From a virus, in the IMG/VR virus record IMGVR_UViG_3300044974_000943: 64,000 bases of DNA. One strand, written 5' to 3'. The notes beneath the pieces were generated by a model. That model did not search any database. It was not told the DNA's origin and was given only the letters and a program-made list of their open reading frames with translations. Shown here piece after piece: positions 2,963 to 56,886 of the stretch. The number at the start of each line of letters is the position of its first letter. The first letter of the stretch is position 1. Both the position numbers and the translations under genes were made by a program.

Positions 2963-2997
2963 GTGTTAAGATATACATATCAATTTCATCTTAGCAC
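2963..2997. promoter_or_regulatory. Face-to-face extended -10 promoters serving the divergent genes
   Basis: TGTTAAGAT (+, 2964-2972) and TGCTAAGAT (-, 2988-2996) form an imperfect inverted repeat in the 37-bp gap. Confidence 0.5.
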
Positions 2998-2998
2998 C

Positions 2999-4594
2999 AT
3001 GCGAAAACAGTCCAATAGCTTCAAAGAGTTCAAGACCCAAGAGTATTTCAAAGCACTAGCCGAATCAGTGTTGCAAGTTCGTAGAGCAATTAATAGCGAC
3101 TTTGCCAAGAACACCTTTGTGGATGAATTAGCTAAATGGATTGCCAAATCTAATGTAAGTATCTATGAAGTACCAGACAAGCTCTACGAACGTTTTGCAG
3201 AAAAGAATGTGAGTGATATCACTAACAAGTATTTTGCTAAGGTGCAGGTCGAGTTCGGTAAAGTTCTGACTACCAATTTTGAGTCGATGATTAAGTTGGC
3301 GCTTAGACATCAGATGTACGACTATTTGTACGAGTATGGCGATGATGATATTCGCAAGTACTTTGACACGCAGGTGATAACTGAAGATACCAAAGAGCTA
3401 TCAGCAGAGTTTGCAGCCAATGATGACTACGGGCAAAATATGCAAAATCGAGCCAGATACGCGCTTACCAAAAAAGCTGTTCAGAACTTATTAAACCAAC
3501 GAGCAGAGCAGACCAATATCAACGAAGTAGCCAAAATCCAAGAGCGCGTCAAGATAGCGGATGAAGTGTCGCGCAATGTCTATATGCTCAACAAAATAAG
3601 CGATAGCACAAACAGCGCCAAAGCTGCCATGATGAACTTCTTGTACGGTAGTAGTGATGAGAAACAGAACTTTATATCGAGTAACTACCTTGGTAAGCGT
3701 CGTAGAGTATTACAAGCATCTTACTCAGCCGAAAGCAATGCAAATATCCGTAAGGCAGTGGCAATATTTCTAGCTGCCAACCGAGAGTACATCACTAACA
3801 TCAAGTCCCAACGCAACAAGTACGAATACGACCTCAACCTTCTCAAAGTACGAATTAGGAACATTATCAACAAAGACACACAAGGCTTGCAAGGGGCATT
3901 TAAGCAGCAGTCACCCGATGTAATCGTGAAGACCGAGTTGGCAATTGCATACAACTTCGGTAAGGTAGCAGCATTTGGTGGTAAGGCAGACAGATACAAG
4001 CGCTTTAGATGGAATGTAGACCGAGAGTACGCATTGATTAGCCGATATAAAAGATTAGCAAGTGGAAGCAAAAGAACTGACCCAGTACCTTGTGAAGATT
4101 GTGAACTTCAAGATGGTCTTGAGTACTACTTGTTTGAGATAATTGAAAACCAAAGAAATAGCGGAGATGTTATTAATTATAAAGCTGGAAACCCTACCGT
4201 ATGGCGCAATTCAGCTAGACCTATTTTGCCCCTGCATCCGATGTGCCAATGTTTTTGGTCGCTCTCTGAAGATATTGATGAAGAAGATTTTGACCCCAAG
4301 AAACAGCCTCCGAATCGACCACCTCAAGGCGGCTTAGGTACACCAATTAAGATTGCTATCGCCGCTACTGCATTTGTCGCTGGACTCGCACTACTAGCAT
4401 CTAACAAATCACTAGGTAATGCGACTGCCAAAGCCATTTACTCAACATTCACAACGCCTCGATTACCTATACCAGATGCAGCCAACTTGCCTCGTATAGT
4501 AGAGTCAGGACTAGAAGCACTCAACTTTGTTGGGGCAGAAAAGAATATAGTAAATAAGGTAGCTAAAAGTGTCCAAATCATCAATCGCGTTTAA
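2999..4594 (+). CDS. MuF / SPP1 gp7-like head morphogenesis (minor head) protein with C-terminal hydrophobic extension
   Basis: IVKTELAIAYN...RFRW...CEDC...DG...PILPLHPMCQC matches the MuF RTE...C-x-x-C...P-x-HP-x-C-x-C pattern. ATG 2999 preferred over GTG 2963. Confidence 0.75.
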   Translation: MRKQSNSFKEFKTQEYFKALAESVLQVRRAINSDFAKNTFVDELAKWIAKSNVSIYEVPDKLYERFAEKNVSDITNKYFAKVQVEFGKVLTTNFESMIKLALRHQMYDYLYEYGDDDIRKYFDTQVITEDTKELSAEFAANDDYGQNMQNRARYALTKKAVQNLLNQRAEQTNINEVAKIQERVKIADEVSRNVYMLNKISDSTNSAKAAMMNFLYGSSDEKQNFISSNYLGKRRRVLQASYSAESNANIRKAVAIFLAANREYITNIKSQRNKYEYDLNLLKVRIRNIINKDTQGLQGAFKQQSPDVIVKTELAIAYNFGKVAAFGGKADRYKRFRWNVDREYALISRYKRLASGSKRTDPVPCEDCELQDGLEYYLFEIIENQRNSGDVINYKAGNPTVWRNSARPILPLHPMCQCFWSLSEDIDEEDFDPKKQPPNRPPQGGLGTPIKIAIAATAFVAGLALLASNKSLGNATAKAIYSTFTTPRLPIPDAANLPRIVESGLEALNFVGAEKNIVNKVAKSVQIINRV

Positions 4595-4702: not shown

Positions 4703-5338
4703 ATGACCACTAAACAACCACAACAAGCTGAATTTATGTTTGAGGGGCTTCAGGCTCTTCAACACGTAGACATTCCTTCCGCTTTTGATGCAGCAAAACA
4801 CGCAGGTTATAACCTTATTTATGGCTATAAACCTAGCTTTGGTGATTTGAGTGCGCTTCCTATAGCTATGAACGCCACTAACTTCCCTAAATGGGCAAAG
4901 ACAGCTAAAGATACCTTTCAAGCCAATGCAGGAGATAAATTGCCTCAACGTGTTGCCAAAGCAGCACTTGAAACTGGGGGTCAAGTATTACGCGACAGTG
5001 AAGGTTGGGGAAATCCTATTGCAGATGGAATGTCTGCAACTTATCGGAATGTCCGAGGAGTTTACGATAAGCAAAAGGAACTTGGTCGTAAGTTAACACC
5101 AAGAGAAATTATGAGTGAGTCTGGTAAAGCTGCGTTACAAACAGCCAAGGCTCAAATAGTAACTAGACCTAAGTTTTATTTTCATGATGCTCCTAAGATG
5201 GGTTTAGCTGCTATAAAAGAAGCTAAACCTAAAATTGGTGAGGCGTTATCTAAACTTCGTCAAGCTTTACCTAGTCGTAGAGGTGTACCACAATTAGCTT
5301 CTATGTCAACTTCGTTCAAACACTTTAAGAATTTTTAG
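4703..5338 (+). CDS. Putative internal head (cargo) protein
   Basis: Starts KQPQQAEF (same as the internal KPQQQAEF of 10839..12875) and ends FKHFKNF; lies in the head module. Confidence 0.5.
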   Translation: MTTKQPQQAEFMFEGLQALQHVDIPSAFDAAKHAGYNLIYGYKPSFGDLSALPIAMNATNFPKWAKTAKDTFQANAGDKLPQRVAKAALETGGQVLRDSEGWGNPIADGMSATYRNVRGVYDKQKELGRKLTPREIMSESGKAALQTAKAQIVTRPKFYFHDAPKMGLAAIKEAKPKIGEALSKLRQALPSRRGVPQLASMSTSFKHFKNF

Positions 5339-5614: not shown

Positions 5615-6637
5615 ATGAAAAAAACCTCACCTAATATTGCTTATTTTAAAGCCCCAGCATCAAGAGCCAACTTTGAGTTGGGGCAGGTGTTGGTTTCTGG
5701 CACTCCTATTAAAGACGAGTACACGGCTCTTGTAGCCACTGAAGGCAAGTTTACTGATAGTACTGATGTTGAACATGATTTCAGTGTTGAACGTCTCAAT
5801 ACAATTGTCGAACATACTAACCGAGCTATCGATAGCGGCACAGTTGTACCTGTTTGTGCTGACCACAAAAAAGATATTCCAAATACCATTGGAAGCATTA
5901 ACGGAAGAGCATTCACAAAAGTAATTACGGAAGCAGATTTACCGAACCAAAATTCCAAGCATTTAGTAGGTAAGCTTGGAATGTTCTTATCTGGTGTTAA
6001 GGTTGCAGCAGCTAAAGGTATCGAAGCGTTGCGTAGTGGCGTTAAAAGTGTGAGCATGGGACTTAACCTTGACCCTAACGAACATCGCATCATGGAACTC
6101 AGCCTAGTGCCAATCCCCGCAATTCCCAACATGGGACTATTTCACAAGAAGGTAAGCAAAGCAATGACCGCTAACTTTTCAGGTATTCCTGATAGCGGAA
6201 ATGCGGTAACTTGGGACGAGCTTGATGCTAATGACCAAGCAATTGACGACCTTCAAGACGAATACAACGAAATTTGCCAGAAATTGTGGCTCTTGCTCAA
6301 AAATGCCTATGACAACGATGCGATTAATATCGACAGTCCTGAAGTCTTGTTACAGTTGATTTACTCTCAATTGAATGGCTTCAGTGTCAAGATTATCGAA
6401 CTACTCGGTTTGACCCAGTTGATGCAACAAATGAACCAGCAAGCACAGGCTGGCGTAATGACTCAGCAAGACCAAGCAGCACAAACTCAGTCTCAATTAC
6501 AAGGCGGTGCTGAGAGTGGTATGACGATTCCACAACTACAACAACAAACCACATACAAACGTGGTACTAACAAGCTGGCTCAGTTCAATTTATCGACGAC
6601 TGGTAAGAAGTATGTACGAGGCACAGCTAAATGCTAA
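5615..6637 (+). CDS. Prohead maturation serine protease (HK97/Mu-I-like, assemblin fold)
   Basis: ADH...IG...SVSMG...MELSLVPIPA matches the H...S...E-x-S-x-V-x-x-PA pattern of caudoviral prohead proteases; upstream of scaffold and capsid genes. Confidence 0.8.
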   Translation: MKKTSPNIAYFKAPASRANFELGQVLVSGTPIKDEYTALVATEGKFTDSTDVEHDFSVERLNTIVEHTNRAIDSGTVVPVCADHKKDIPNTIGSINGRAFTKVITEADLPNQNSKHLVGKLGMFLSGVKVAAAKGIEALRSGVKSVSMGLNLDPNEHRIMELSLVPIPAIPNMGLFHKKVSKAMTANFSGIPDSGNAVTWDELDANDQAIDDLQDEYNEICQKLWLLLKNAYDNDAINIDSPEVLLQLIYSQLNGFSVKIIELLGLTQLMQQMNQQAQAGVMTQQDQAAQTQSQLQGGAESGMTIPQLQQQTTYKRGTNKLAQFNLSTTGKKYVRGTAKC

Positions 6638-8025
6638 GTTTGAAAGCAGAGTTTGCACCCCAGCAGCAGTTCACAGGTCAAACTCGTAGCGGCAGAGTAA
6701 CTTGGGGAGATACTAGAACTCCTCGTAAAGCTGGTAGCGGTGGTCTACGCGGTAAGTCTCGTCAGGAGCAGCTAAGTGAAGAGGCTGTAATGAAAGTCAG
6801 GGCTAAAGTAGCTGGCGAACGCGAAAGACGGGCTTCTGAGCCTCCTAAAGCACCACCTCTTACAGATACCGAGCGTGGTACAGCTAAAGGGGCAGAAGTA
6901 ACTGCTAAAAAAGCTAAAGTTGCGGCAGATGAAAAAGATGCCTTATATGAAAAATATGGGGGAAAGCAGTCAGGCAACGCTGGTGGCGGATTTAATATCC
7001 CATTAGTTACACCTGCTGCCACTGCTGTTGGCAATACAATTCGAGATAAGGTTATTAACCCTGTCGCTAGAGGTCTTATTGATAGAGATATGACTCCAAG
7101 CGAAATCAGAGGTACTCTAGCCTTTGGAACGTTATTTCCAGCAGTAGTGGGCGGATTAGCTTATGGTCAATATAAAAACAAGAAGGCTGAGAAAGAAAAA
7201 CAAGCTCAGGCTCAAGCTCATCGCGACAAAGTTGCCGAAATAATTGCAAAAAGGAATCTACTATTGGAACAACGTCAAGCGCAAGCCCAACAACCTCAAA
7301 CTCAGGTGAGAGTGCCATACAACTTTTTTAGTGCTGCCCCTTTAGTTACACCAGCCAACTTCGCATTTCCTAAGATTGGTGTTCGTAACCCTTTCTTCAT
7401 TAAAAAAGAAAAAGCACTTCCACTTGCTGCAATCGGAGGTACATTAGTTGCTGGGTATGGTTTGCTATCTAAGCTCAACAAACAAAGAGCGCTTGATGCC
7501 TACAAGGTAAATAGCCTTAAAGATAAGAATGCTCAAGATTTTGCAGCTAATTATTTTGATAGTCCTCAATACCATGCAGACAACTTGATTCGCGAAGCTG
7601 CTAATATTACTGGTAATCCTTTGCTGCAAGGTATTACGGATAATCCTCTTGACAGGCTTACTCCAGCCCAGCAAGCTGAAGTGCAGAAAAGGAGAGGCAC
7701 TGCCCGATATTCTAGAGGCGCAGACAAGGTTGCAAACTTTTTTGACCCACTAATTACCCCAAGCTTAGCTATTGGAGGTACACTTTACGGTATCTACAAC
7801 AAGAAAAAAGCTGCCGACCAACAAGAAGAAGTATTTGAAGCTCAGAAATTAGCTGCTCTTGGCTCAATTAAAGATAGGTCGTTGCGTCAACAACTTTTGG
7901 CAAAAGCTCAAGGGCAGTTCATTGATGAAGATTCTAAAAATCGAATCATCGACTCAGCTTTGAATGGCGATGTTCGCTCTGTACTGCGAACAGGTTTGAA
8001 AAAAGTTAATTGGGATGCACTATAA
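6631..8025 (+). CDS. Putative multi-module internal head polyprotein with hydrophobic Gly/Ala helices
   Basis: Begins KAEF; internal PANF and VANF. Three hydrophobic segments (FPAVVGGLAYG, LAAIGGTLVAGYGLL, LAIGGTLYGIY), each followed by a basic/Q-rich helix. Confidence 0.55.
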   Translation: MLSLKAEFAPQQQFTGQTRSGRVTWGDTRTPRKAGSGGLRGKSRQEQLSEEAVMKVRAKVAGERERRASEPPKAPPLTDTERGTAKGAEVTAKKAKVAADEKDALYEKYGGKQSGNAGGGFNIPLVTPAATAVGNTIRDKVINPVARGLIDRDMTPSEIRGTLAFGTLFPAVVGGLAYGQYKNKKAEKEKQAQAQAHRDKVAEIIAKRNLLLEQRQAQAQQPQTQVRVPYNFFSAAPLVTPANFAFPKIGVRNPFFIKKEKALPLAAIGGTLVAGYGLLSKLNKQRALDAYKVNSLKDKNAQDFAANYFDSPQYHADNLIREAANITGNPLLQGITDNPLDRLTPAQQAEVQKRRGTARYSRGADKVANFFDPLITPSLAIGGTLYGIYNKKKAADQQEEVFEAQKLAALGSIKDRSLRQQLLAKAQGQFIDEDSKNRIIDSALNGDVRSVLRTGLKKVNWDAL

Positions 8026-8026
8026 C

Positions 8027-8752
8027 ATGAGACATTTTGTAAATTTCGGAATTATTAACAACATTAAGAACTCTACTGGCAAGCAACGTTTAGGTGCTGG
8101 TGCTGGCTTACTCGGATTGGCTGCTGCTGGTGGATATGCTGGCTATAGGGCGCTTAAGGGCGAACCTCTAGACTTTGGAGGTATTCAGGCTTCAGTTGTA
8201 ACTCCTCCTGAAGACTTTGATAAAGGGGGCTTTGATTTTAAAGATATCCCTCAAAACTTAAGAGGTGGTTCAGCTACTTCCCTTAAAGAGTGGACAGAAG
8301 ATAGATTTGGTAATCCAGTTTCTAGCTACCCTCAAGCTGAGGGCATGGGGGGTGGTACGGACATTTACCAAAATCTTCGTGGCACTGTTCAAAAGGTATA
8401 CAGAGATAGACCTAACACACCTAGAGACAATATCTATGATGCCATCCGCAATCCTGACTTAAGAGGGCAGCAATTTGCGGAGACGGGTGAAAGAATTAAA
8501 ACTGTGGCTGGTAATTTGGGTAGGGGTGTTCAGTCAGGTATTGGCAATACTTACAACTACCTCAAAGAAAATGCAAGACCTGATTTTCGAGAAAATTTTA
8601 GAGTTAAACCAGAGGAGTACTTAAGCGGCAAGTATAAATTAGATGATTTGTCAAGCAAAGACCTATTGAATATTTACAAACAAGTTCAAGGTAGGGAAGG
8701 CGCTGAAACAATTTTAGATAAGGCTATAGCCAGAAGAGGTTTAGGTCTGTAA
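8027..8752 (+). CDS. Putative internal head protein with MRHFVNF leader and glycine-zipper helix
   Basis: ATG 8027 follows the upstream stop (8025). MRHFVNF is followed by LGAGAGLLGLAAAGGYAGY. Confidence 0.55.
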   Translation: MRHFVNFGIINNIKNSTGKQRLGAGAGLLGLAAAGGYAGYRALKGEPLDFGGIQASVVTPPEDFDKGGFDFKDIPQNLRGGSATSLKEWTEDRFGNPVSSYPQAEGMGGGTDIYQNLRGTVQKVYRDRPNTPRDNIYDAIRNPDLRGQQFAETGERIKTVAGNLGRGVQSGIGNTYNYLKENARPDFRENFRVKPEEYLSGKYKLDDLSSKDLLNIYKQVQGREGAETILDKAIARRGLGL

Positions 8753-8753
8753 T

Positions 8754-9629
8754 ATGAGGCACTTTGCAAACTTTTATTTAAACTTACAAGCCCATGCAGA
8801 AAATGCTTTGCAAGGTTTAGTGGATAAGTATCCTAACTCTGAAGTGGGGTATGGGGCAACAGATTTCTTAGATAATTATGGGAGGCATAATTTTGTAGAA
8901 CATACAAATTTACCATCTAGAGAGGCTGTAAGTACGACTATACCTTATGACAAGCTAGACCTTCAAAACATTAAGGGATTTCCTTACAAGTGGGATGGAC
9001 TAAAACATCTTCAAGGCGCTCACACTCATCCTATGGTGTTATCGGCTAAAGCGGCGGGAGCAATTGGAGAAGATGCAGATATTTCCAATGTACCTAAATA
9101 CCCAAGTTTACAGGATTTCACTACTGATGCAACTAATAGGCAAAGAATACCAGCCCCTAACGGCTCAATCAATCCTTCTTTAGTTATTACCAAAGAGTAT
9201 GGAGAGCCTGTTACTTACAAATATACTGCTGGGGCTAATAGGCAAAATTTTTATTCCCGTCTCAATTCTATACAAGATTCGATTAGACTGGGCTTACTTG
9301 ATAGTGAGTTATACGATAAGCCAGACGAGAATGGTAATCGAGCTTTTGTAAAAGATATATCGAAACCGTTTCTCAGAAGGGCAGCTTTAGAAGAACAGAT
9401 GTCAAACTCTAAAGGATTCTTTCACGAACCTTATATAAACGTAGAAAGACAAGCCGCCAGCCCTATTCCAGTTCAATTGCCAAGTATGGGTACAAGTAGA
9501 CTTGGTGAGACTGTTGCTGCTGCTAATGCTATAGGGCTTGCTCATGGAGGTTACACTCTTAAAAAGGCTTATGACGAGCGTAGAAAGCAGAGACAAGCTG
9601 ATGATGTACAATTAACTAATAAGTATTAA
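8754..9629 (+). CDS. JAB/MPN-like metalloprotease domain protein with MRHFANF leader
   Basis: E(VGYG)...H-T-H-P...P-S-L-Q-D followed by the SLVIT strand fits the JAMM E-HxH-SxxD motif; C-terminal hydrophobic helix plus basic tail. Confidence 0.6.
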   Translation: MRHFANFYLNLQAHAENALQGLVDKYPNSEVGYGATDFLDNYGRHNFVEHTNLPSREAVSTTIPYDKLDLQNIKGFPYKWDGLKHLQGAHTHPMVLSAKAAGAIGEDADISNVPKYPSLQDFTTDATNRQRIPAPNGSINPSLVITKEYGEPVTYKYTAGANRQNFYSRLNSIQDSIRLGLLDSELYDKPDENGNRAFVKDISKPFLRRAALEEQMSNSKGFFHEPYINVERQAASPIPVQLPSMGTSRLGETVAAANAIGLAHGGYTLKKAYDERRKQRQADDVQLTNKY

Positions 9630-9636
9630 TAATTTT

Positions 9637-10839
9637 ATGGACTTAGATTTTCAAGATAGGCTATTAGCTGGCGCTGGTGTTGCAGGTGGTGCAGTACTTG
9701 GTAGTAGATTTATTGCTCCCTACGTCAGTAATAGATGGGGCAGAGAAGATTACTACAAAAGTCAGGCAAATGGACTTGGCTCTCAATCAGACCTAGAATA
9801 CAAGCACCAAGAGAGTCTACGAGACATTCTTCAAAGTGATTTATCAGAGCAAGAAAAAGCCCGAAAAATTAAAATCCTTCAGATGTATAGACAAAAAGAG
9901 TTAGGTCAAACTCTAGTGAATACAGAAAGGAGTGCAGAAAGAAATCAAAGATGGGGTAATGCTAAGGGCGCTGTTGCTGGAACTTTAGGGACTGCTGCTG
10001 TAGGTGGAGCTTTGGGGTTGGGCTACGGACTTAGTAACGATTTTGGTACTAGTAAGAAATGTTTTGCAAATTTTGATGCTTACCTACCTGAAGAAAAAGA
10101 AGAGCAACCTAAAAAGAGAAGCATAAGAAAAGCTGCTGCTATTGCAGTTGGTAGCGGGGCAGGGGTGGCTTTAGGGGCAGATGTTCTTAATAAATTTTCA
10201 AATACTGGAGAAGGGCAATATTATGCAAAAGAAGCAGCAGAAAACTTTGAAAATCTGAAAGGTTCCGTTGGTAAAGGGTTGATTAAAGCGGGAGAACATT
10301 TACAAGGTTATAATTTTCCAGAAGGACTTAGATATAGACCTTACAACTTGGATGATTGGGGTCATCATTCTTTTAGTAAAGCTGAAAAGACTGCAAAATT
10401 TACCCGCAAACACAACTCAACTTACGTGCAGTTCAAAAAAGCCTATAATCAAGCCGTAGCAAACTTTATTGACCCCTCAGCAATTGCAAGTGAAGGTATT
10501 GGCGATTATTTAGGTCTAGGTCTAGGCAGTCTCGCAGGTGCGGAAATCGGTCGTGCTGGCTCTGCTCAAATCAAAGCTAAAGCTCTTAGACGTAGTGCTG
10601 ACCCTAACGAACGCCACAATCAAATATTGGCTCAACAACTAGAAGCTGCACAACAAATACAAGACCCTGTACAACGCGCAAGAGCTATTGAGAAAGCACA
10701 ATCTCAAGCTGACTACGAATCTGCCAAACTGCAACGCTGGGCTGGTTTAAAAGGCGGTCTATTGCAAGCAGGGTATACTGGACTAGGTGCAACTACAGGA
10801 CTACTTGGTAATACAATTGCACATCACTGGGACAACTAA
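9637..10839 (+). CDS. Putative glycine-zipper internal head polyprotein
   Basis: Five GxxxG-rich segments; junction motifs KKCFANF, EKTAKF, AVANF. Confidence 0.55.
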   Translation: MDLDFQDRLLAGAGVAGGAVLGSRFIAPYVSNRWGREDYYKSQANGLGSQSDLEYKHQESLRDILQSDLSEQEKARKIKILQMYRQKELGQTLVNTERSAERNQRWGNAKGAVAGTLGTAAVGGALGLGYGLSNDFGTSKKCFANFDAYLPEEKEEQPKKRSIRKAAAIAVGSGAGVALGADVLNKFSNTGEGQYYAKEAAENFENLKGSVGKGLIKAGEHLQGYNFPEGLRYRPYNLDDWGHHSFSKAEKTAKFTRKHNSTYVQFKKAYNQAVANFIDPSAIASEGIGDYLGLGLGSLAGAEIGRAGSAQIKAKALRRSADPNERHNQILAQQLEAAQQIQDPVQRARAIEKAQSQADYESAKLQRWAGLKGGLLQAGYTGLGATTGLLGNTIAHHWDN

Positions 10840-12875
10840 TGAATAAAAAACCGCTATTACAAAAAGCCAACTTTGCTACAGCACCTTCACTTCTTTCTGC
10901 CGTACCTAACGCAGTAAAAATTGGCGCTGGTGTTGGTGGTGGACTGGGACTTTTGCAAGGCTCTGGAGTTTTGGAGTCAGATGCAGAAAAAAAAGCTACT
11001 AATGTTGGTAATCGATTAGGTAAGGTACTGACAAGCACAACTGTAGGTGCTGGACTAGGTGCTGGTGCAGGATACGCAGTTAATCGCTACAATTTATCTA
11101 AGGCTCCAGAAAGGGAGTTGCAACGTAGAGAAGCTGTCGTAGCTGAGCATGAAGCAGCTAACCCTAGAGGCATTCGTAAAGCTGTTAAAAGGGTTAATAA
11201 AGAAGTTGAAGCTGTAAAAAATAAAGTTCAAGAAGTTGTAGCTCCAAATCTTGACCAGAGAGAAGCTAGGATGGCTGAAGAACTTAAGCGTCAGTCTACC
11301 CAACCTGAACCAACTCCATTGATTGACCAAGCTATAAGTTGGGAAAGAAATATCGCAGCTAAAACTCAAGAAAAAGTTGGCGGATTGCTTGATAGACTTA
11401 AAGGCAAAGGTAATTCGACTCGGAGAGAGGCAGGTGGAGGTATCCCCCCAAATACAGTAAACGTAAATTCAACCACAGACCTAAGTAAAATGATTCGTAA
11501 ATCAGCAAACTTCCAAGACCCAGCTACAATTCAACGCCTAATCCAACACGGTAGCACCTACATCCCTCAAAACAATACTGGGGTTATCAGCCTCGAATCT
11601 ACCTTGCGCGGCAAGATACAGAAAAAGAAACTGCGTGACCCTAAAGTACCAGCAAGTATGGGTGTTAAGGAAATCAACTCGATGATTGAATCGGGCAAGC
11701 CAGTAGGCAAGTACTTCAATAAAGAAATTCGTAAGTCTGCCAGTTTTGAGATTTCTCCAGTTCAAATAGCTGCTGGTGTGGGTGGGTTGGCTGGGTTGGT
11801 AGGGGGAGGTTTACTAGGGAGAAAGTTGGCAGGTAAGCCTATTCCTCTTGATTCAGACCTAGAAACTAAGTACAATAACTTGTACCAACAAATTCTTACA
11901 AACCCTGAGAGAAAAGATTTACAAGAAGAGTACGACAGAATGACTTACGAACTTGCTGAGACACCAACTGCAAAAAGAAATGCAAAAAGAGCATTCTATC
12001 CAGTTGCAGGTATGATAGGAGGAAGACTTGCTGGGGCTGGACTAGGTGCTGTAGCTGGCGCAATGTACGAAAATAGTCAGTACAGTAATAAAATCCGTAA
12101 GTCTGCAAACTTCCTCAAGCCCCAGCAACAAGCTGAGTTCGGTATTGGCGACCAAATCAACAGCGCTTTGACATCGGCAGGTAAATTAATCACGCAACCC
12201 GTAGCTAAAGCAGTTCGTAAAGCTGCTACCAAAATTCCTGCTGGCGATAGATTTTTAGGTGGTATCCCTATTATTGGTTCCAGACTAGATGGTGGTGCTA
12301 AAGCTGCTGCTGCTGGTACTTACGATGCTTTACAAGGGGCTGCTAAAGTACTTGATTCCGATAAAGCGGCTAAACTTACTGCTATCGGTGTTGGTGGTAC
12401 TGCACTGGCTGGTGGTGGATTGCTTGCTGCTAAACTAGCACAAAAGAAACAAGAAAACGAAGCTCGTTATAGCAAAAGCATCCGTAAGTCTGCATCGTTT
12501 GGCATCATTCCTACTGGTTTAGTTAATGGCGCTCAAAAAGTTGCTAGAGGTGCTGCAAATCGTTTTGGCAATCTATCTCCTCAAATCAATGCCGCTAATG
12601 TCGGTACTGCTGTTGGTGCGGGTCTAGGCGCTCTTGAAGGTTCTGGTATCAATGAAACAGAAGAGCAACGAAGAAGCACAGGTTTGGTCGGTCGTGCAGG
12701 TAAAGTACTTGGTATGACTGGATTAGGTGCTGGTGTAGGTCGTGGAGTTGGTTCAGTTGCTGGCGCTGGTGTCAATCGTTATCAAGCTAACCAACGTTTA
12801 CAGAGTCGTCGCAAGGATAATCCAGACGCATTCAAGAATCCCAACACAGTTCCACGCTCTATAGAAATCGAATAG
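10839..12875 (+). CDS. Glycine-zipper polyprotein with four IRKSA[NS]F linkers
   Basis: N-terminal QKANF. IRKSANF/IRKSASF at 11493, 11727, 12093 and 12480. First and last modules are paralogous. Confidence 0.6.
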   Translation: MNKKPLLQKANFATAPSLLSAVPNAVKIGAGVGGGLGLLQGSGVLESDAEKKATNVGNRLGKVLTSTTVGAGLGAGAGYAVNRYNLSKAPERELQRREAVVAEHEAANPRGIRKAVKRVNKEVEAVKNKVQEVVAPNLDQREARMAEELKRQSTQPEPTPLIDQAISWERNIAAKTQEKVGGLLDRLKGKGNSTRREAGGGIPPNTVNVNSTTDLSKMIRKSANFQDPATIQRLIQHGSTYIPQNNTGVISLESTLRGKIQKKKLRDPKVPASMGVKEINSMIESGKPVGKYFNKEIRKSASFEISPVQIAAGVGGLAGLVGGGLLGRKLAGKPIPLDSDLETKYNNLYQQILTNPERKDLQEEYDRMTYELAETPTAKRNAKRAFYPVAGMIGGRLAGAGLGAVAGAMYENSQYSNKIRKSANFLKPQQQAEFGIGDQINSALTSAGKLITQPVAKAVRKAATKIPAGDRFLGGIPIIGSRLDGGAKAAAAGTYDALQGAAKVLDSDKAAKLTAIGVGGTALAGGGLLAAKLAQKKQENEARYSKSIRKSASFGIIPTGLVNGAQKVARGAANRFGNLSPQINAANVGTAVGAGLGALEGSGINETEEQRRSTGLVGRAGKVLGMTGLGAGVGRGVGSVAGAGVNRYQANQRLQSRRKDNPDAFKNPNTVPRSIEIE

Positions 12876-12908
12876 CAGTCATTACGTCAGTTACGGGAAA
12901 AAGCCATA

Positions 12909-12949
12909 AATAATGCCATGCTGAGAAATTAGTGTGGCATTATTGTTTT
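12909..12949 (+). terminator. Intrinsic terminator hairpin after the cargo block
   Basis: AATAATGCCATGCTGA-GAAA-TTAGTGTGGCATTATT followed by GTTTT. Confidence 0.65.
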
Positions 12950-12974
12950 AATCCTAAAAACGAAAATAATAAAA

Positions 12975-13844
12975 ATGGATGAAGAACAAGATTTAGGCGC
13001 TCAGGACGCTGGTATGGAAGGAGCGACCGAACTCAATCCTACCAATGCTTTTGGCGAATTACTTCTAGACTTAATTGAAGCCCAATATGAAGGCGACATT
13101 GATGCTGGTGTACAAGCTCTCGTTCAAGCTACTGGTTTGAGCGAAGAAGACGTAACTGGCTACATTAGCGGTGAAAATATCGTTGATGATGCTGACATTC
13201 TCGAAGCAATGATTGGAGCCTTCCCTGACGCTAACGACGAAGATATTCAAACTATTATCGAAGTTGCAAGCGGAGTTGAAGAAGCTGACCGTCAAGCTCT
13301 AGAAGCACAATACGAAAATGAAGGCGCTGAAGGAGGCGCAGAAGAACCTATGACTGAAGACGCTGCTAATTACGCTGCGGCATATAATCCCGCAATTCAA
13401 GCTAACTTTAATCGTGCAGTTGCCGATGAAATTCAACGAGTACGCGCAGAAAATGAAGCTCTCCATGCTAATTTTGCTCAGGCTCAGTTCCAAGCTAACC
13501 TTTCTCAAGCCTTAACTGACTTGAACGCTCGTATTAGTCAAGACGTTGTTGACGGTGTTATCACCCCTGCAATGAAGGAAGCTCTTATTGGTAATTTCTC
13601 TGACCCTCGCCAACGAGTAGCTCAATTTACTGGTATTGCTCAAACTAACGGTGCGCGTGACTTGCAAGAACAACTCAATATGTCGGAGTTTGCTTACTCT
13701 CTATTGCGTAATGTTGCAAATGTAACCCAGTTCACTGACTTCTCTGTTAGTGCTGAAGAAGTTGCAACTGCTAATTTCTCATCTAGCCTTGAAGAAGCTG
13801 CTAAGGGCGACTTGATTGCTATGGGTCTGGATTTCGGACTATAA
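12975..13844 (+). CDS. Capsid scaffolding protein
   Basis: Highly acidic and helical; lies between protease and decoration/MCP genes; multiple ANF/AQF motifs. Confidence 0.65.
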   Translation: MDEEQDLGAQDAGMEGATELNPTNAFGELLLDLIEAQYEGDIDAGVQALVQATGLSEEDVTGYISGENIVDDADILEAMIGAFPDANDEDIQTIIEVASGVEEADRQALEAQYENEGAEGGAEEPMTEDAANYAAAYNPAIQANFNRAVADEIQRVRAENEALHANFAQAQFQANLSQALTDLNARISQDVVDGVITPAMKEALIGNFSDPRQRVAQFTGIAQTNGARDLQEQLNMSEFAYSLLRNVANVTQFTDFSVSAEEVATANFSSSLEEAAKGDLIAMGLDFGL

Positions 13845-13859
13845 GGAGCAAAAAACACA

Positions 13860-14768
13860 ATGTATTTAACAACTGAAAAATATATCCGTAACGGTAAGGC
13901 AATCATTTTCAACGCCGCAGCTAAGAAAGTTGCAATTGATGGTGTTGAAATTAAGAGTGCCGATATTCAACTCAACTCTGAAGGGATTGCCGCAGTTCCC
14001 GAAGGTAGCTTTATTGCTACTACTGGCACTTCTGGCGAAAGAGTTGCCCGTTTTCTTCCTCGCACTCGCTTAAACGCTGCGACCGCTACTAACTCTCCCA
14101 CCGTCTCATTGAAGACTCCTTGTTCTCAATTCAAGGTTGGTGATGTACTGTACGCTAAGCATTGTTTTGCTCGAATCAAGTTTGTTGGCACTTTTGCTAC
14201 TAGTGATGTTATTACTGCCAAGATTGGTGGTGTAACTTACTCGGCAACTGTAGGCGCTACTCAGACTGGTGCTGGTGCTGCTGCTGATTTTGCAACTGCT
14301 AATGCTGCTGCACTATTGACTGCTGGTATTACTTTTGCTCAAGTCGGTTCTACTGCTGTAGCAACTATCTACGCAAATGATAGCTATGATGTGTACTTCA
14401 CTACTTCTGGTGCTGCTGGTCAAGTTGTTGTCGAAACTACTGAAGCTGGTTACTTAGGTGATAACCTCACTCCTCTAGGTACGATTCTTGCAATCGGTGC
14501 TGAAAATGCTACTACTGGTGTTCGCTCGGTGACTTTGGCTGCTAACGCTGCTCAAGCTCTGCCTATCAACTCTATTGTCGGTATTAACGTTGAAGAAGTT
14601 CTCGGTTTGTATCCTGACCCTGTAGACCTAACCAACGAGCCTGTGCGCCATTTTGCAGTTATCAGTGAAATTGCTGGTATCTATCAAAACAATCTGCCCT
14701 ACATTGACCGTCAATTGAAGCGTTTGTTTGGTTTGCACTTGCACATTAAACCATACTTCAACAAATAA
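13860..14768 (+). CDS. Head decoration protein (gpD/Dec-like) with inserted beta-rich domain
   Basis: Immediately upstream of MCP; VPEGSFIA near N-terminus and IYQNNLP near C-terminus are typical of decoration proteins. Confidence 0.55.
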   Translation: MYLTTEKYIRNGKAIIFNAAAKKVAIDGVEIKSADIQLNSEGIAAVPEGSFIATTGTSGERVARFLPRTRLNAATATNSPTVSLKTPCSQFKVGDVLYAKHCFARIKFVGTFATSDVITAKIGGVTYSATVGATQTGAGAAADFATANAAALLTAGITFAQVGSTAVATIYANDSYDVYFTTSGAAGQVVVETTEAGYLGDNLTPLGTILAIGAENATTGVRSVTLAANAAQALPINSIVGINVEEVLGLYPDPVDLTNEPVRHFAVISEIAGIYQNNLPYIDRQLKRLFGLHLHIKPYFNK

Positions 14769-14784
14769 CGGAGAAATATAAAAA

Positions 14785-16032
14785 ATGGCAATGTCCCCTA
14801 TTGAAAGCTTTTTAAAAGAAGCACGCGCTGCTAAGGCGGCGGACTTGGTTATCAACAATACCCTTCGTCAGACCAAAGAACGCAGCAAAGTTCTCAACAC
14901 TTATGTTCCCTTGATTGAAAAGACAGGTCGTGATTGGCTTGCTTATCTTGGGACAACCACAGACCCCATCGCATCGTTAGTTGCCACTGGTCAGGATTAT
15001 CCTGAAGCGAAAAAAGGCGACTTCTCTCGCATTCAAGCTCGTAACTTCAAAGCAGCGATTTCGTATCACTGGGATGAAGATACGCAGTGGCGTATGCAAG
15101 AAGTTAGCGAAATCGCTAAGTTACGCAACATCACCATTCAGAATATTCAAGTTTCTGAAGGTAAAGTGCAGTTAGGTCAAGACAACGAATTGGCTAAGGT
15201 CATTTTTGGTTCGGTAGCTTCTCTTGTTCGTGGTCACATCAATTTGATTGACTATCTTGCTTGGCAGACTCTACAAACTGGTAAAATGGCGTATACCGAC
15301 CGTCGTACAGGTCTGAACGTTTCGTTAAATTGGTTAAAAGCTCAGCCTGTTCGCAGAAATATGTTCCCTCAGCCCGTATATCAAACGGATTACAACGGAA
15401 CTGAAACTGTTGACTCTCTCAAGCGCGACTGGACTCAGCACGAAACTGCTGACCCTTTACAAGACCTTGTAGATATGCACTCTAACTACAAGTGGGTTAA
15501 CGGGTTCCCTGCTGACGAAATTGCAATTAGCGAACGTCTTCTTTTGAATATGGTTCGTTGTAAGTCGGTTAAGGAAGCTGTAGTTGCAGCTAATGTTATC
15601 GGTAACGTTATTACTGGTACTCCTTCTATTGACCAAGTTAATGAAGTTCTAACTCGCAGATTTTTACCTAAGTTCGTCTTAGTTGACGACTATGTAGAAC
15701 TAACAGACAATGAAGGCAAGTCAGTTCCTACTCGTGTACTTGATGAAGGTACTGTAGTATTCCTAAGTCGTCAAGGTCAGTTTAATCGTATTCTTGGCGG
15801 AACTCTTGAGAACGGAGGAAAAGCAGGTATCTACGTCAACACGTACACCAAAGCTGGCGACCCACCTCTTTCCATCACCAACACTGCAAGTATGCAGTTG
15901 GTTGCGGCTCCTACTATTGGTCGCACTGGAAGCGCACGTAAATTTGCTAAATTGGCTAACTTGGAAAGTTCAGTAAATCTTGCGGAATTTACCACTTTCA
16001 ACCCTGCTGACGGTTTAACTGTCATCTCCTAA
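14785..16032 (+). CDS. Major capsid protein (lambda gpE-like family, HK97 fold)
   Basis: 415 aa; LAWQTLQTGK, W-x(5)-ADPLQDL and GDPP...LVAAP motifs are typical of phage capsid E proteins; followed by a strong terminator. Confidence 0.85.
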   Translation: MAMSPIESFLKEARAAKAADLVINNTLRQTKERSKVLNTYVPLIEKTGRDWLAYLGTTTDPIASLVATGQDYPEAKKGDFSRIQARNFKAAISYHWDEDTQWRMQEVSEIAKLRNITIQNIQVSEGKVQLGQDNELAKVIFGSVASLVRGHINLIDYLAWQTLQTGKMAYTDRRTGLNVSLNWLKAQPVRRNMFPQPVYQTDYNGTETVDSLKRDWTQHETADPLQDLVDMHSNYKWVNGFPADEIAISERLLLNMVRCKSVKEAVVAANVIGNVITGTPSIDQVNEVLTRRFLPKFVLVDDYVELTDNEGKSVPTRVLDEGTVVFLSRQGQFNRILGGTLENGGKAGIYVNTYTKAGDPPLSITNTASMQLVAAPTIGRTGSARKFAKLANLESSVNLAEFTTFNPADGLTVIS

Positions 16033-16194: not shown

Positions 16195-17439
16195 ATGGAC
16201 TTCCCTAAATCGGCTGGAATTTACAAAATCACGAATAAAATCAATGGAAAATATTACATTGGTTCAAGCAACAATCTCAATTACAGAAAAAGTACTCACT
16301 TATCAAGATTAAGAAGAGGTAAACACGGTAATAAGCAACTACAGGCTTCTTTCACTAAAAACGGAGAAGATAATTTCTTCTTTGAGATTGTAGAACTTTT
16401 GGAAAACGCTACAGTAAAAGAAATTAGACAATTAGAGCAAACTTATTTAGATGGCGTAGAGGACTGGTCTTTATGCTATAACGTATTGAAGATTACAAAT
16501 CCTGATTCTGAAATTATTCCTATATCGGAAAATACAAGAAAGAAGATGTCGGAAAACAATAAAGGAGAGAAAAATCCTAATTTTGGTAAGGCTGTTTCAG
16601 AAGAGACACGTTTAAAGTTATCAAAAGCTAGATTAGTTCGTGGGTCTGGTGTAACAAAATACGCGGATGATTGTTGGGGTGTAGTTATAAAGGTTGAGAT
16701 TGGAACGAATAAAAAAGTTTGTCTTGGTAAATATAGAACAGAAGAATTAGCAAGACAAGTACGAAAAGTTGCCGAAGAATTGTATATTGATGGTATCGCG
16801 GAAAAACAATCAGAATTAGATGAGTTGTTTACCCACAGAAGAGGAGTAGAAAAAGACGGTAAGTATATAGCTAACTCCAGAATCTATGGGTTAGGAGTAC
16901 GTTTGGTTGAAAGTGGAAGTTGGGCAGCAAGTATTTTTTACAATGGGAAAACTACAGAACTCGGTAGGTACGAAACTGAAGAGCAAGCGCGTCTAGTGAG
17001 AAGTCTTGCTGAGAAAGTATATTGGGATGGACAACATGAATTTAAGAAAGAATTAGAGGCTGCGCGTTCAAAAGCTAAAACTAAAACTAACCAAAAGCGT
17101 AAAGGCGTTGGAGTCAGTAGAAATGGGCATGGTACTTACACAGCCTGTATTACAGTCAACAATAAAACATTTTCTGTAGGTAACTTTGGTACAGAAGAGG
17201 AAGCAAGAGAGCATCGTATCAAAGCCGAAAAATATTATTATGATGGTGATGAATCTTTTGCAGAACTTTTTAACAAACCTAAAAAAGAGCGAGAATTACC
17301 TGTTGGAGTGTATCCTAAGTACAACAAGTTTTACTCTGTTATATCTGTAAACAACAAAACTAAGCGTGTCGGCAGTTTCAACACACCCGAAGAAGCACAT
17401 TTAGCTAGACTTGAAGCTTTACAATCTCTGCTATCATAA
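16195..17439 (+). CDS. Free-standing GIY-YIG homing endonuclease with NUMOD3 and repeated AP2-like DNA-binding domains
   Basis: AGIYKITNKINGKYYIGSS...R...E...YN; SENTRKKMS and SEETRLKLS; four repeats ending in (L/V)G-x-(Y/F)-x-T-x-E-x-A. Confidence 0.9.
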   Translation: MDFPKSAGIYKITNKINGKYYIGSSNNLNYRKSTHLSRLRRGKHGNKQLQASFTKNGEDNFFFEIVELLENATVKEIRQLEQTYLDGVEDWSLCYNVLKITNPDSEIIPISENTRKKMSENNKGEKNPNFGKAVSEETRLKLSKARLVRGSGVTKYADDCWGVVIKVEIGTNKKVCLGKYRTEELARQVRKVAEELYIDGIAEKQSELDELFTHRRGVEKDGKYIANSRIYGLGVRLVESGSWAASIFYNGKTTELGRYETEEQARLVRSLAEKVYWDGQHEFKKELEAARSKAKTKTNQKRKGVGVSRNGHGTYTACITVNNKTFSVGNFGTEEEAREHRIKAEKYYYDGDESFAELFNKPKKERELPVGVYPKYNKFYSVISVNNKTKRVGSFNTPEEAHLARLEALQSLLS

Positions 17440-35026: not shown

Positions 35027-35572
35027 ATGCAACACTTCGCAGACTTTGGGTACGTTAGACAAGCTAATAAACAACTGAAGCGATTGTACGATTTACAAGG
35101 CACAAAGATAGCGATACCTGATAAATCGAGACTAAACCCTGCCACTTTAGAAACAGGATTAGGAAATATCTCTGGCAATCTAACAAAAGATTTTGATAAA
35201 GGTCTTATAAATACAATCCCAAAAAATACCTTAAACCAAGTTAATCTGCAATTAGAAGAAAAATTAAGTAGGAAAAGAGCTATTAGACAATCAGGATTAG
35301 ATAAACAAGACCCTTTAAGTAGACCTATTAGACATAGCTACAACGAATACGATGCACCAGCCGTACTCCCTAAAACTGGTTGGTCTGATATTCGTAAAAC
35401 TGATGACCGAGCAGCTAGTCCTACGGGATATCTTGGATTCCGTACCGACCCTTACAAGGGATATGGAGGTATGATGGAAGAGCCTATACCTAAACCAGAC
35501 TTATATCCTGATGGTATGCCTCAGACTGTTAAAAAATACGCCAGCAGACTGAGCAGAAAAGAGGTTAATTAA
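35027..35572 (+). CDS. Putative internal head protein with MQHFADF leader
   Basis: N-terminus matches the MRHFANF leaders at 8027 and 8754. Confidence 0.5.
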   Translation: MQHFADFGYVRQANKQLKRLYDLQGTKIAIPDKSRLNPATLETGLGNISGNLTKDFDKGLINTIPKNTLNQVNLQLEEKLSRKRAIRQSGLDKQDPLSRPIRHSYNEYDAPAVLPKTGWSDIRKTDDRAASPTGYLGFRTDPYKGYGGMMEEPIPKPDLYPDGMPQTVKKYASRLSRKEVN

Positions 35573-45637: not shown

Positions 45638-46483
45638 ATGAAAGGACGAGTATACGCAATGGTTGAGACTTGGATTTTATATCAAACTACGAACGTTTGC
45701 AATGGCAAAATTTATGTTGGGGTACATAAATTAGCTAACACTAAAAGGTCTAAGAATTATCTTGGAAGTGGTTATGCTTTGAAACCAGCTATCGAAAAAT
45801 ACGGCATAGAAAATTTTACCAGAGTAACTTTAGCAGAATTCAATTGCCCCGAAAATGCCTACGATGCTGAAGCTAAGGTAGTTACAGCAGATTTTATTCT
45901 ACGTGAAGATACCTACAATATTAGATTGGGTGGTAAAGGGTGTTGGGGTTTGAAACATTCAGAGGAAACTAAAAAGAAGATGTCTGTTACCAAGAAAGGT
46001 ACGGTTGTGAATCCTGAAACTAGGATGAAACTCAGTACTGCACTAAAAGGTAAACCCAAAACGGAAGAAACTAAAAGAAAGATGAGCGCTAGTCAAAAAG
46101 GTAAAAAAATTAGCGAAGAACATAGAGCCAGTATTAAAATTTCCCATAACACACCTGAAGCTAAAGCTAATATGAGTGCTGCTCAAAAGGGCAAAAAACT
46201 GAGTGAAGAGCATAAATTAAAAATCAGTGTGGCTAAAAGTGGGGTAAATAACCATAATTTTGGCAAACCTTGTCCTGACGCAATTAAAGCGAAAATTAGT
46301 GCAGCTTGTAGTGTACCTGTAATAGTATGTGGAGAATACTATAAATCTATTGACAAAGCTTCAAAAACTAAAGAAGTTACCTATAAGACAGTATTCTACA
46401 GAGTTAAATCTGACAATCCGAAATGGTCAGAATGGCGCTTAGCTACCGATGCAGAAAAATTGTCTCATCTGAGTGAGTTATAA
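45638..46483 (+). CDS. Free-standing Seg-like GIY-YIG homing endonuclease with NUMOD3 repeats
   Basis: ILYQTTNVCNGKIYVGVH...YLGSG...YGIENF...E...YN; multiple SEETKKKMS-type repeats. TGTTATACT promoter at 45616-45624. Confidence 0.9.
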   Translation: MKGRVYAMVETWILYQTTNVCNGKIYVGVHKLANTKRSKNYLGSGYALKPAIEKYGIENFTRVTLAEFNCPENAYDAEAKVVTADFILREDTYNIRLGGKGCWGLKHSEETKKKMSVTKKGTVVNPETRMKLSTALKGKPKTEETKRKMSASQKGKKISEEHRASIKISHNTPEAKANMSAAQKGKKLSEEHKLKISVAKSGVNNHNFGKPCPDAIKAKISAACSVPVIVCGEYYKSIDKASKTKEVTYKTVFYRVKSDNPKWSEWRLATDAEKLSHLSEL

Positions 46484-56130: not shown

Positions 56131-56886
56131 ATGAGAATTTCAGCATACGCAAGAGCAACTAAATATAAAAATGCAAATTTTGCACCTTTTGATTGGGCAG
56201 GATTAGCTGGCAAAGCATTATCTACTTCTGGTGGTGCGGCTAAAATTGGTGCTGGCATCGGTGCAGGTGTTGGTGCTATTAATTATCTTGGCAGTGATGA
56301 CAAATCAATTGGCAATCTTGCTGGTCAAGTGGCTGGAGGTGCAGCATTAGGTGGAGCTGCTGGTTATGGTGGTGCAAGCCTAAGAAATGCTTGGCAAGCA
56401 CGTAAAGCTGGTCAAGTTGGTAATCAGGCTCTTTTACCTGCTACTACAAATGCTTCAGCTACAAATGTAACCCAGACACCGATTAACAATCAGCCATTTA
56501 CTCCAAACGCGCCTAAACCACAAGCTCAGTTACCTGCGGCTCAGCCAGTTCAAAGACCACAACCTACTCAGAACGGTGTAATAACAACACCTCCCCCTGC
56601 AAGTCAACAAACTATTGATACTACAGCTATCACTGTCCCTAACGCTAGTGGACAAACTCAATCTGGCAATTCTCAACCATACCCTTTAGCTAATCGCACT
56701 ACTCAAGGTGTTGGGCAAGAACAAATTGGGACTCTTTCACAAAAACGTAGAAAGGTGCAGTTAAGAAATGCTCCAGCAGGAACATATCAAACTAATGGTT
56801 TACCTCCTACTGTAAGTAATAATAATAAAGCTGAATCTCCTTTCGCTAATTTCAAAGTGCGCCGTTACAACGGATTCATATACTAA
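56131..56886 (+). CDS. Glycine-zipper protein bracketed by ANF motifs (putative head cargo)
   Basis: KNANF at the N-terminus and PFANF near the C-terminus; AKIGAGIGAGVG matches VKIGAGVGGGLG of 10839..12875. Confidence 0.6.
   Translation: MRISAYARATKYKNANFAPFDWAGLAGKALSTSGGAAKIGAGIGAGVGAINYLGSDDKSIGNLAGQVAGGAALGGAAGYGGASLRNAWQARKAGQVGNQALLPATTNASATNVTQTPINNQPFTPNAPKPQAQLPAAQPVQRPQPTQNGVITTPPPASQQTIDTTAITVPNASGQTQSGNSQPYPLANRTTQGVGQEQIGTLSQKRRKVQLRNAPAGTYQTNGLPPTVSNNNKAESPFANFKVRRYNGFIY

Follow-up and report, generated by a model that had tools for sequence, protein, structure and literature searches.

In herpesviruses, assemblin (pUL26 type) is a protease fused to the scaffold, and it acts on R and M sites of the form V/L-x-A|S. 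The known specificities of prohead proteases comprise cutting after Ala in these viruses and after Glu in the phages T4, phiKZ and SPN3US. The T4 enzyme recognizes I/L-x-E (PMC12991175), and gp245 of SPN3US cuts head proteins at A-x-E (PMC10052503). The DNA described here, 64,000 nucleotides from a virus (IMG/VR record IMGVR_UViG_3300044974_000943; hereafter the window), carries at 5615-13844 a set of head genes in which the motif Ala-x-Phe (A-x-F) recurs through a prohead protease, five neighbouring open reading frames (ORFs) and a scaffold-like protein. Taken together, the evidence makes it probable that the phage prohead serine protease cuts after the Phe of this motif, releasing basic glycine-zipper proteins that are retained in the head. 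If true, an enzyme cutting after Phe would widen the range of known specificities. The capsid protein of the window (14785-16032) is 95% identical to those of the Pseudanabaena phages Pam2 and PA-SR01, and by this measure the window belongs to a Pseudanabaena siphophage of the same type, with 5615-13844 as its head-assembly module. Pam2 (genome 143 kb) and PA-SR01 (137 kb) are both long-tailed siphophages with a head of ~90-100 nm.

On the + strand, genes for a 543-amino-acid (aa) and a 211-aa protein precede the protease gene (5615-6637), which is followed by the five tightly coupled ORFs (6631-12875), referred to here as cargo ORFs, and by the gene for the scaffold-like protein (12975-13844). 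A preliminary description made from the letters alone had listed these five ORFs and a series of A-x-F motifs; all of them lie where it placed them, and there are more sites than it listed. Neither Pfam nor PHROG searches matched any family to the five cargo ORFs or the scaffold. The features are as follows (pLDDT, predicted local distance difference test of the protease model).

5615-6637, + strand: prohead serine protease, 340 aa, identified by phrog_976 (E 2.7e-4), fold and 26 homologues
5666-5674, + strand: ANF, protease residues 18-20, predicted N-terminal self-cleavage site in a stretch (9-32) of pLDDT<50
6170-6178, + strand: ANF, protease residues 186-188, between the catalytic and scaffold-like domains, in a linker (178-203) of pLDDT<50
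6578-6586, + strand: AQF, protease residues 322-324, 16 residues from the protease C-terminus, disordered in the model
6631-8025, + strand: cargo ORF 1, 464 aa; leader and modules B (236 aa), E (126 aa) and F (94 aa); AEF 6646-6654, ANF 7354-7362, ANF 7732-7740
8015-8752, + strand: cargo ORF 2, 245 aa (the true start is probably the second Met, at 8027); leader ending in V-N-F (8039-8047), then a 234-aa module with a Gly/Ala-rich segment
8754-9629, + strand: cargo ORF 3, 291 aa; 7-residue leader ending in ANF (8766-8774), then a 284-aa module of family J, also present in the related contig L007
9637-10839, + strand: cargo ORF 4, 400 aa; modules G (146 aa) and p (109 aa), a 22-residue spacer and module H (123 aa)
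10066-10074, 10393-10401, 10426-10434 and 10459-10467, + strand: ANF, AKF, VQF and ANF of cargo ORF 4
10839-12875, + strand: cargo ORF 5, 678 aa; leader, A (213 aa), C (78 aa), q (122 aa), a 9-residue spacer, D (120 aa) and A (124 aa)
10866-10874, 11505-11513, 11739-11747, 12105-12113, 12132-12140 and 12492-12500, + strand: ANF, ANF, ASF, ANF, AEF and ASF of cargo ORF 5
12975-13844, + strand: scaffold-like protein, 289 aa, with five sites: ANF 13401-13409, ANF 13467-13475, AQF 13482-13490, AQF 13620-13628 and ANF 13770-13778

For the counts, the head module was defined as the seven ORFs between 5615 and 13844 (2707 aa) and the remainder as the other 44 ORFs of the window (17,108 aa). The preliminary description had anticipated an enrichment of A-x-F in the former, and this is what the counts give. 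ANF occurs 13 times in the head module, where per-protein shuffling gives an expectation of 0.57 and none of 3000 shuffles attains the observed number, and A-x-F occurs 22 times against 9.8 (1 of 3000 attains it), A-[NSQK]-F being present in 19 copies, while the remainder holds 3 ANF for 4.1 expected and 71 A-x-F for 63. Two of these 3 outlying ANF lie near both ends of one 251-aa Gly-rich protein (56131-56886). Similarly, 27% of the Phe residues of the head module sit in A-x-F, compared with 9% elsewhere (Fisher p = 1e-5). A complete 146-kb relative behaves alike, with 11 ANF in its head module against 0.39 expected (0 of 2000 shuffles). In its remaining 39,965 aa there are 6 against 7.9 expected, 4 of the 6 being tags at protein ends; a depletion of ANF outside the head module was rejected on these last numbers.

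The linker copies, whose consensus ends in IRKSANF, differ from one another at synonymous positions: three Ala codons, both codons of Asn, Phe, Ile and Lys, and either AGT or TCG for Ser are in use. The linker is therefore maintained as a peptide, and recent DNA duplication is ruled out as the origin of the repeats. Over 90 distinct sites, which were chosen as A-x-F so that P3 and P1 are fixed by selection, the consensus reads F/Y at P12/P11, S/N at P10, K at P9, I/L at P7, R at P6, K at P5, S at P4, A at P3, N/E/S at P2 (N in 43, E in 20, S in 10, others in the rest) and F at P1, followed by A/G/F/Q and often then by D/I/L and P. It had been proposed that the linkers mostly start after an aromatic residue; this does not stand as a rule and survives as a tendency, F or Y being found at P11 or P12 in ~35-38% of the distinct sites. 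Alignments of orthologs are free of the selection bias. In answer to the proposed check of linker conservation in related contigs, they show Ala at P3 and Phe at P1 unchanged at all shared sites, with variation at P2 (N/E, N/S, E/N, N/D) and drift at P4-P6, against a background of 54% and 27% invariant columns. The sole exception at P3 is one leader with Ser in four phages. Val or Ser may also occupy P3, and across all sites P1 is Phe, rarely Tyr.

This pattern of a small P3, a free P2 and a fixed P1 is shared with the giant phages SPN3US (gp245) and phiKZ, whose gp175 recognizes S/A/G-x-E, and in which ejection and inner-body proteins are processed: P3 Ala, the free P2, the fixed P1 and the presence of several sites per polypeptide are alike, as are, by prediction for the window phage, a cut C-terminal to the motif, protease self-cleavage and abundant internal head proteins (PMC10052503). 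The Glu that occupies P1 both in T4 (I/L-x-E) and in the SPN3US/phiKZ class is not found here, an aromatic P1 (Phe, with Ala at P3) replacing the acidic one, and the genome is of 140 kb rather than 240-280 kb. Moreover, the multiply cut parts of SPN3US proteins are removed N-terminal propeptides, whereas the pieces of the cargo ORFs are conserved, independently shuffled modules.

It is indeed the comparative anatomy of the cargo region that provides the strongest evidence. The close relatives comprise nine IMG/VR contigs, Pam2 and PA-SR01, with proteases at least 90% identical and near-identical scaffold and capsid genes, and the number of ORFs between the protease and scaffold genes ranges among them from 2 to 5, with lengths of 149-696 aa. 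Division of all cargo proteins at A-x-F yields pieces that belong to common families, A to N. Module C has 78-79 aa in 10 of 10 genomes and is always preceded by A-x-F, in two unrelated upstream contexts, and always followed by it. Whole modules have been inserted together with their own site (q, 122 aa, in the window; s, 80 aa, in Pam2; t, 107 aa, in L007). Two PA-SR01 ORFs, B-C-A (403 aa) and A-I (~190 aa), match the last six of the seven modules in a single 696-aa ORF of L008. The internal spacer and module H of cargo ORF 4 form a separate ORF starting with M-A-K-F in L003 and L009, and modules lying inside an ORF in other phages come first in an ORF in PA-SR01 and L008, behind a 7-residue leader that ends in ANF. 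The modules bounded by A-x-F thus appear, from these comparisons, to be evolutionary units that are swapped, fused and split exactly at the motif. The ends of BLAST segments fall near sites in 32% of cases for 20% by chance (above all 1000 random draws), a blunt measure since the linkers themselves align.

Three more distant contigs, with proteases ~45% identical, keep the synteny, and their cargo ORFs are mostly single modules. Many of the leaders there end in A-x-F or S/V/H/L-x-F directly before a Gly-rich segment in proteins in which Phe is otherwise scarce. Therefore, the aromatic P1 is the conserved core of the signal; P3 Ala is typical of the Pam2 clade. Within the window, leaders of 7-17 residues ending in [A/V]-x-F are common to the otherwise unrelated ORFs 4703, 6631, 8015, 8754, 10839, 35027 and 56131. 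Sites paired 9-11 residues apart also occur: an AEF lies nine residues past an ANF in the 678-aa ORF, and V-Q-F stands between AKF and ANF in the ORF starting at 9637.

In the protease itself, a leader at the N-terminus precedes the catalytic domain (~28-185), which is followed by a helical, scaffold-like domain (~200-296) and a basic tail. Its AlphaFold2 (AF2) model reaches pLDDT 72-96 over residues 31-170. Among 48,161 PDB representatives, VIA-align returned only two chains with Z of at least 8, the varicella-zoster virus (VZV) protease (Z 9.0, root-mean-square deviation 3.3, 117 residues aligned) and T4 gp21 (PDB 5jbl; Z 8.7, deviation 3.2, 116 aligned). Foldseek found capsid maturation proteases in BFVD (E 9e-9); with the whole model against PDB it gave herpesvirus proteases at E ~1e-2 only, the clear match having come from VIA-align. 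As modelled, the catalytic domain has the assemblin/T4 gp21 fold. A PDB sequence search with the protease profile found nothing, and the authors of the PA-SR01 study reported an HHpred match of the protease to the Mu-like prophage I protein. A database search yielded 74 homologues, of which 26, down to 28% identity, were aligned. D83, H84 and S147 are invariant in these 26, S147 being the Ser of SVSMG that had been predicted as catalytic, and H84 and S147, the candidate catalytic pair, stand in the order and at roughly the spacing known from the assemblin/HK97 gp4/T4 gp21 family.

The claim that the motif brackets the catalytic domain is likewise upheld. ANF 18-20, ANF 186-188 and AQF 322-324 fall in low-confidence (pLDDT<50) or disordered stretches separating leader, catalytic domain, helical domain and tail, and they are kept in relatives of 28-60% identity. 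F20 is nearly invariant across homologues of 28-82% identity; the leader also contains A-Y-F at 5639-5647. The middle site is A-[NS]-F or similar in many relatives, not all, and the last is [A/L/I/V]-x-[F/Y] in most of the 26 aligned homologues. In the scaffold, the sites cluster in the variable middle of the protein, except that the last one (13770-13778) lies 21 residues from the C-terminus, with N, E or Q at P2. Six scaffolds, down to 42% identity, agree without exception at A264, A266, F268, S269 and F218, and two sites are invariant in both A and F. Protease-flanking and scaffold sites persist in relatives that are 40-50% identical. A complex prediction that paired the protease domain (residues 28-182) with 40 residues of linker from the 678-aa ORF scored 0.00; it was run with no controls and counts neither way.

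The resemblance to herpesviruses extends to this layout. Their order of protease domain, site, helical scaffold-like part and site near the C-terminus is repeated here, the best structural match is the VZV protease, and ANF 186-188 would be the analogue of the R site. Herpesviruses also have a separate scaffold with a site ~20-25 residues from its C-terminus, and the end site of the window scaffold resembles this M site. The differences are that P1 is Phe here and Ala there, that herpesviruses are not known to have cargo polyproteins and that the present virus is a bacterial one. With T4 gp21, the T4 core proteins and the internal proteins IPI-III and Alt, which bear a capsid-targeting leader, the system has in common the protease fold, the short leaders that end at the protease site on otherwise unrelated proteins and, by prediction for the window phage, a scaffold and a protease that are themselves substrates, and products that stay in the head. 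It differs from T4 in P1, Phe instead of Glu, and in its cargo, which consists of multi-module chains with internal sites rather than of proteins with one leader each. The window phage is, furthermore, a siphophage with a Mu-type portal, and its processing is predicted from sequence and models.

According to the mechanism that these results suggest, the protease would recognize a small P3 (usually Ala) and an aromatic P1 (usually Phe) and would cut after Phe. It would cut itself free at three sites and the scaffold at five, and the cut 21 residues from the C-terminus would detach the scaffold from the shell. The five translationally coupled ORFs would yield ~12 modules (78-284 aa) together with short peptides from leaders and spacers, and at least some of the modules would remain in the finished virion as internal head proteins. 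Entry of the modules into the prohead is probably assisted by the linker or leader as well. From motif enrichment, conservation, module architecture and the predicted protease fold, and from the published presence of homologues in virions, we infer cleavage, the enzyme responsible for it, the retention of each module and their function. The interpretation offered in the preliminary description is in this sense partly supported; all the indirect evidence gathered points its way, and cleavage, module retention and any function after ejection are conditional in it. The scheme is best regarded, by analogy, as a variant of T4/phiKZ/SPN3US-type processing with a new P1 and a polyprotein-like, rapidly shuffling way of coding, and not as a new kind of process. 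The statement that no equivalent had been described holds within a limited literature library, in which neither a Phe-specific prohead protease nor processing in this phage group was found; it has to be tempered by the likeness of the scheme to the A-x-E systems. Nor did that library contain structural or proteomic work on Pam2 beyond a table of presence and absence. If true, few tailed phages would be expected to fill the head as this one does, by beads-on-a-string coding, and the linker could be considered as a tag with which to load foreign proteins into capsids. Both Pam2 and PA-SR01 are in culture together with their hosts and the predicted sites are explicit, so that the proposal is testable now.

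That table reports mass spectrometry of purified Pam2 particles (Du et al. 2022; PMC9382816, Table S2), in which gp15, gp17, gp19, the capsid protein gp20, the portal gp50 and gp57 were found, and the protease gp14, the scaffold gp18 and gp16 were undetected. Counterparts in the window are the ORF at 6631 for gp15, that at 10839 for gp17, that at 9637 for gp16 and 56131-56886 for gp57 (70% identical). The table does not separate head from tail location. For PA-SR01, the virion is documented by a four-band gel only. The Pam2 pattern is the one expected from loss of the protease and scaffold together with retention of at least some of the cargo. Absence of the cargo proteins from particles had been named as an outcome that would speak against processing and packaging; gp15 and gp17 are present (PMC9382816), and gp16 is not detected.

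The same data bear on another reading, according to which the five ORFs encode components of an assembly core or scaffold that are cut by the phage protease and then expelled at maturation, as T4 gp22, gp67 and gp68. The position of the genes between protease and scaffold, the low complexity of the products and their helical character in a low-confidence model, the failure to detect gp16 and the long propeptides of SPN3US, which are cut at many sites and removed (PMC10052503), would all suit it. However, homologues of the ORFs at 6631 and 10839 are in purified Pam2 virions and the scaffold and protease are not, the modules are singly conserved and shuffled as units, which suggests a function of their own for each, and an essential core is not expected to be so variable among phages with scaffold and capsid ~90% identical. 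Expulsion of the cargo is on balance quite improbable.

Several observations do weigh against processing by the phage enzyme followed by retention. The sequence membership of the protease is weak: phrog_976 ('head maturation protease') matches at E 2.7e-4, and no Pfam family was found in any of the 26 members. A cut has been seen in no member of the group, be it by N-terminal sequence, peptide map or gel, and the Pam2 table gives presence or absence with no peptides. Besides the undetected gp16, distant relatives often lack Ala at P3 and some of their cargo ORFs have no clear site. The same kind of tag also starts paralogous virion proteins encoded among tail genes (window 35027; Pam2 gp39, 41, 42 and 44), and a tag stands at the very C-terminus of the window ORF 4703-5338 and of Pam2 gp46 (L015 9377-9772), where nothing is left to cut off. 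These C-terminal tags and the leaders on tail-region proteins mean that the tag may act, partly or wholly, as a docking signal.

Taken to its full extent, this would make A-x-F and its basic linker, or the H-F-x-N-F leader, a tag for docking or packaging that binds a prohead component (scaffold, shell interior or protease) and is uncut or cut in few places, the multi-module proteins remaining intact in the head. Cutting would be pointless at an extreme C-terminus, the leader is common to the four paralogous virion proteins of the tail region, and one tag per module would account for the shuffling as well. A pure docking tag would, however, leave unexplained why the motif brackets the protease catalytic domain in disordered linkers, why scaffold sites cluster in the variable middle and lie 21 residues from the end, why sites are paired 9-11 residues apart and why P3 and P1 alone, the register of proteases of the same fold, are fixed. 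Docking without cutting is accordingly judged unlikely; docking and cutting may well both be true. As a separate observation, the tag in the form M-[Q/R/K]-H-F-x-[N/H/D]-F opens the window ORF 35027-35572 and the four paralogous Pam2 proteins (L015 207-4426), which are encoded among tail genes and were all four detected in virions.

Leaders on tail-region proteins would also be easier to reach for a cytoplasmic enzyme, and a host or other non-capsid protease cutting after Phe has a precedent in staphylococcal phage 80alpha, in which the host Prp (F|A) acts on capsid and scaffold proteins. The two cases would have the cut after Phe in common, and in both, capsid-associated proteins carry short N-terminal leaders; in 80alpha even tail proteins have them (PMC5744158). 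Prp is nevertheless a host cysteine protease with a longer, different motif and no polyprotein substrates. In two complete related phage genomes no Prp-family gene (PF04327) was found, the search being confined to the phage side. Cyanobacteria are not among the phyla listed with Prp, whose motif differs (PMC9405229), and the phage has its own assemblin-fold protease carrying the motif at its domain borders. A host enzyme is hence very improbable, and processing by the phage protease is the reading followed below.

With regard to what would be released, one or two moderately hydrophobic segments (Kyte-Doolittle 1.0-1.65), rich in Gly and Ala and ~19 residues long, are present in nearly all modules, and the net charge is positive in most. 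Family A, the commonest, shares a core of 65 residues in which 12 positions are invariant (8 Gly plus E, T, R and K), Gly recurring every four residues in its first half. Pfam searches with the whole cargo ORFs and ten single modules gave nothing above cut-off, the sub-threshold matches being to the glycine-zipper families PF13488, PF13441 and PF05433 (best scores 15.7 bits for a cut-off of 25, 11.7 for 28.9 and 10.1 for 24.2). The likeness to these families is one of composition and GxxxG spacing only. For cargo ORF 3, Pfam gave no match to the module (8775-9626) at E<=1 or to the whole ORF at E<=0.01, and the ESM Atlas only unnamed viral clusters with scores <0.9; a reading of this ORF as a JAB/MPN isopeptidase is thus unsupported. 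An AF2 model of module A from a 13-row alignment is all-helical, but its pLDDT of 51.5 is too low for its fold to be searched with any confidence.

Membrane-active or channel-forming proteins ejected with the DNA would be the most plausible role of the modules afterwards, a tentative guess from composition. It is also conceivable, if doubtful, that the Ala-x-Phe linker works as a plug-and-play cargo code which docks a module inside the prohead, perhaps by way of the packaged protease's substrate groove, and is then cut, the modules belonging to a widespread class of capsid-delivered, membrane-active glycine-zipper mini-proteins in which each lineage has its own protease motif. If this were true, any sequence between two linkers would be loaded and released automatically, and the fast exchange of modules among near-identical phages would be explained. 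That exchange, among phages otherwise ~90% identical, suggests that the proteins delivered with the DNA change rapidly, probably in response to host pressure. Polyvalent proteins, which occur in phages and in conjugative elements and were reportedly described by Iyer et al. in 2017, are said to combine many unrelated domains in one virion-delivered polypeptide and to shuffle these domains fast. They differ in having mostly enzymatic anti-defence domains within very large proteins, while the modules of the window are small, Gly-rich, helical and set apart by the motif that is also found in the head protease.

The remaining features that concern the head lie downstream.

13860-14768, + strand: head protein of 302 aa, family unassigned, between the scaffold and capsid genes; ANF absent; its Pam2 counterpart gp19 was detected in virions
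14785-16032, + strand: major capsid protein, 415 aa (phrog_29, E 1.3e-19); ANF absent
56131-56886, + strand: outlying Gly/Ala-rich protein of 251 aa, encoded far from the head module; ANF occupies residues 15-17 and 239-241

By its sequence, the product of 56131-56886 is probably a further protease substrate or cargo. The capsid had been assigned to the lambda gpE type, which is not confirmed: it matches PHROG 29 'major head protein' and no Pfam family, and a PDB sequence search was also empty. In the capsid protein of the window and its homologues in L012-L014 (proteases ~45% identical), E-x-[F/W] is kept at residues 6-9 and [A/E/S]-[E/D]-F near the C-terminus, ~3-14 residues from the end; to judge from this conservation, both positions may be further trimming sites. 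Following the 302-aa and capsid protein genes, the order continues in the 3' direction with a homing endonuclease gene and the tail genes, including that of a 1939-aa tape measure protein. The portal gene is distant from the head module (46487-48046) and of the Mu type (Pfam Portal_Mu above cut-off).

Homing endonuclease genes (GIY-YIG / HNH / NUMOD3) stand directly after the capsid gene (16195-17439) and directly before the portal gene (45638-46483). The former varies in size from 190 to 414 aa among close relatives or is absent. In PA-SR01 (L002 8258-10054), a DEAD/DEAH helicase gene on the opposite strand separates the cargo ORFs from the scaffold gene, and a gap of similar size is found at that place in L008 (4162-6575) and L011 (14119-16895). 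Upstream of the protease, the 543-aa protein encoded at 2963-4594 keeps its synteny across the family and has a Cys-rich stretch, a C-terminal hydrophobic segment and no family match; it could be a MuF-like minor head protein. Its Pam2 homologue, gp10, was undetected in virions by mass spectrometry. In distant relatives, precomputed Pfam matches place intein-splicing domains in the 907-aa homologue of this protein (L014 6559-9282) and in an ORF that runs off the start of its locus (L013 1-46) and matches Terminase_6C weakly.

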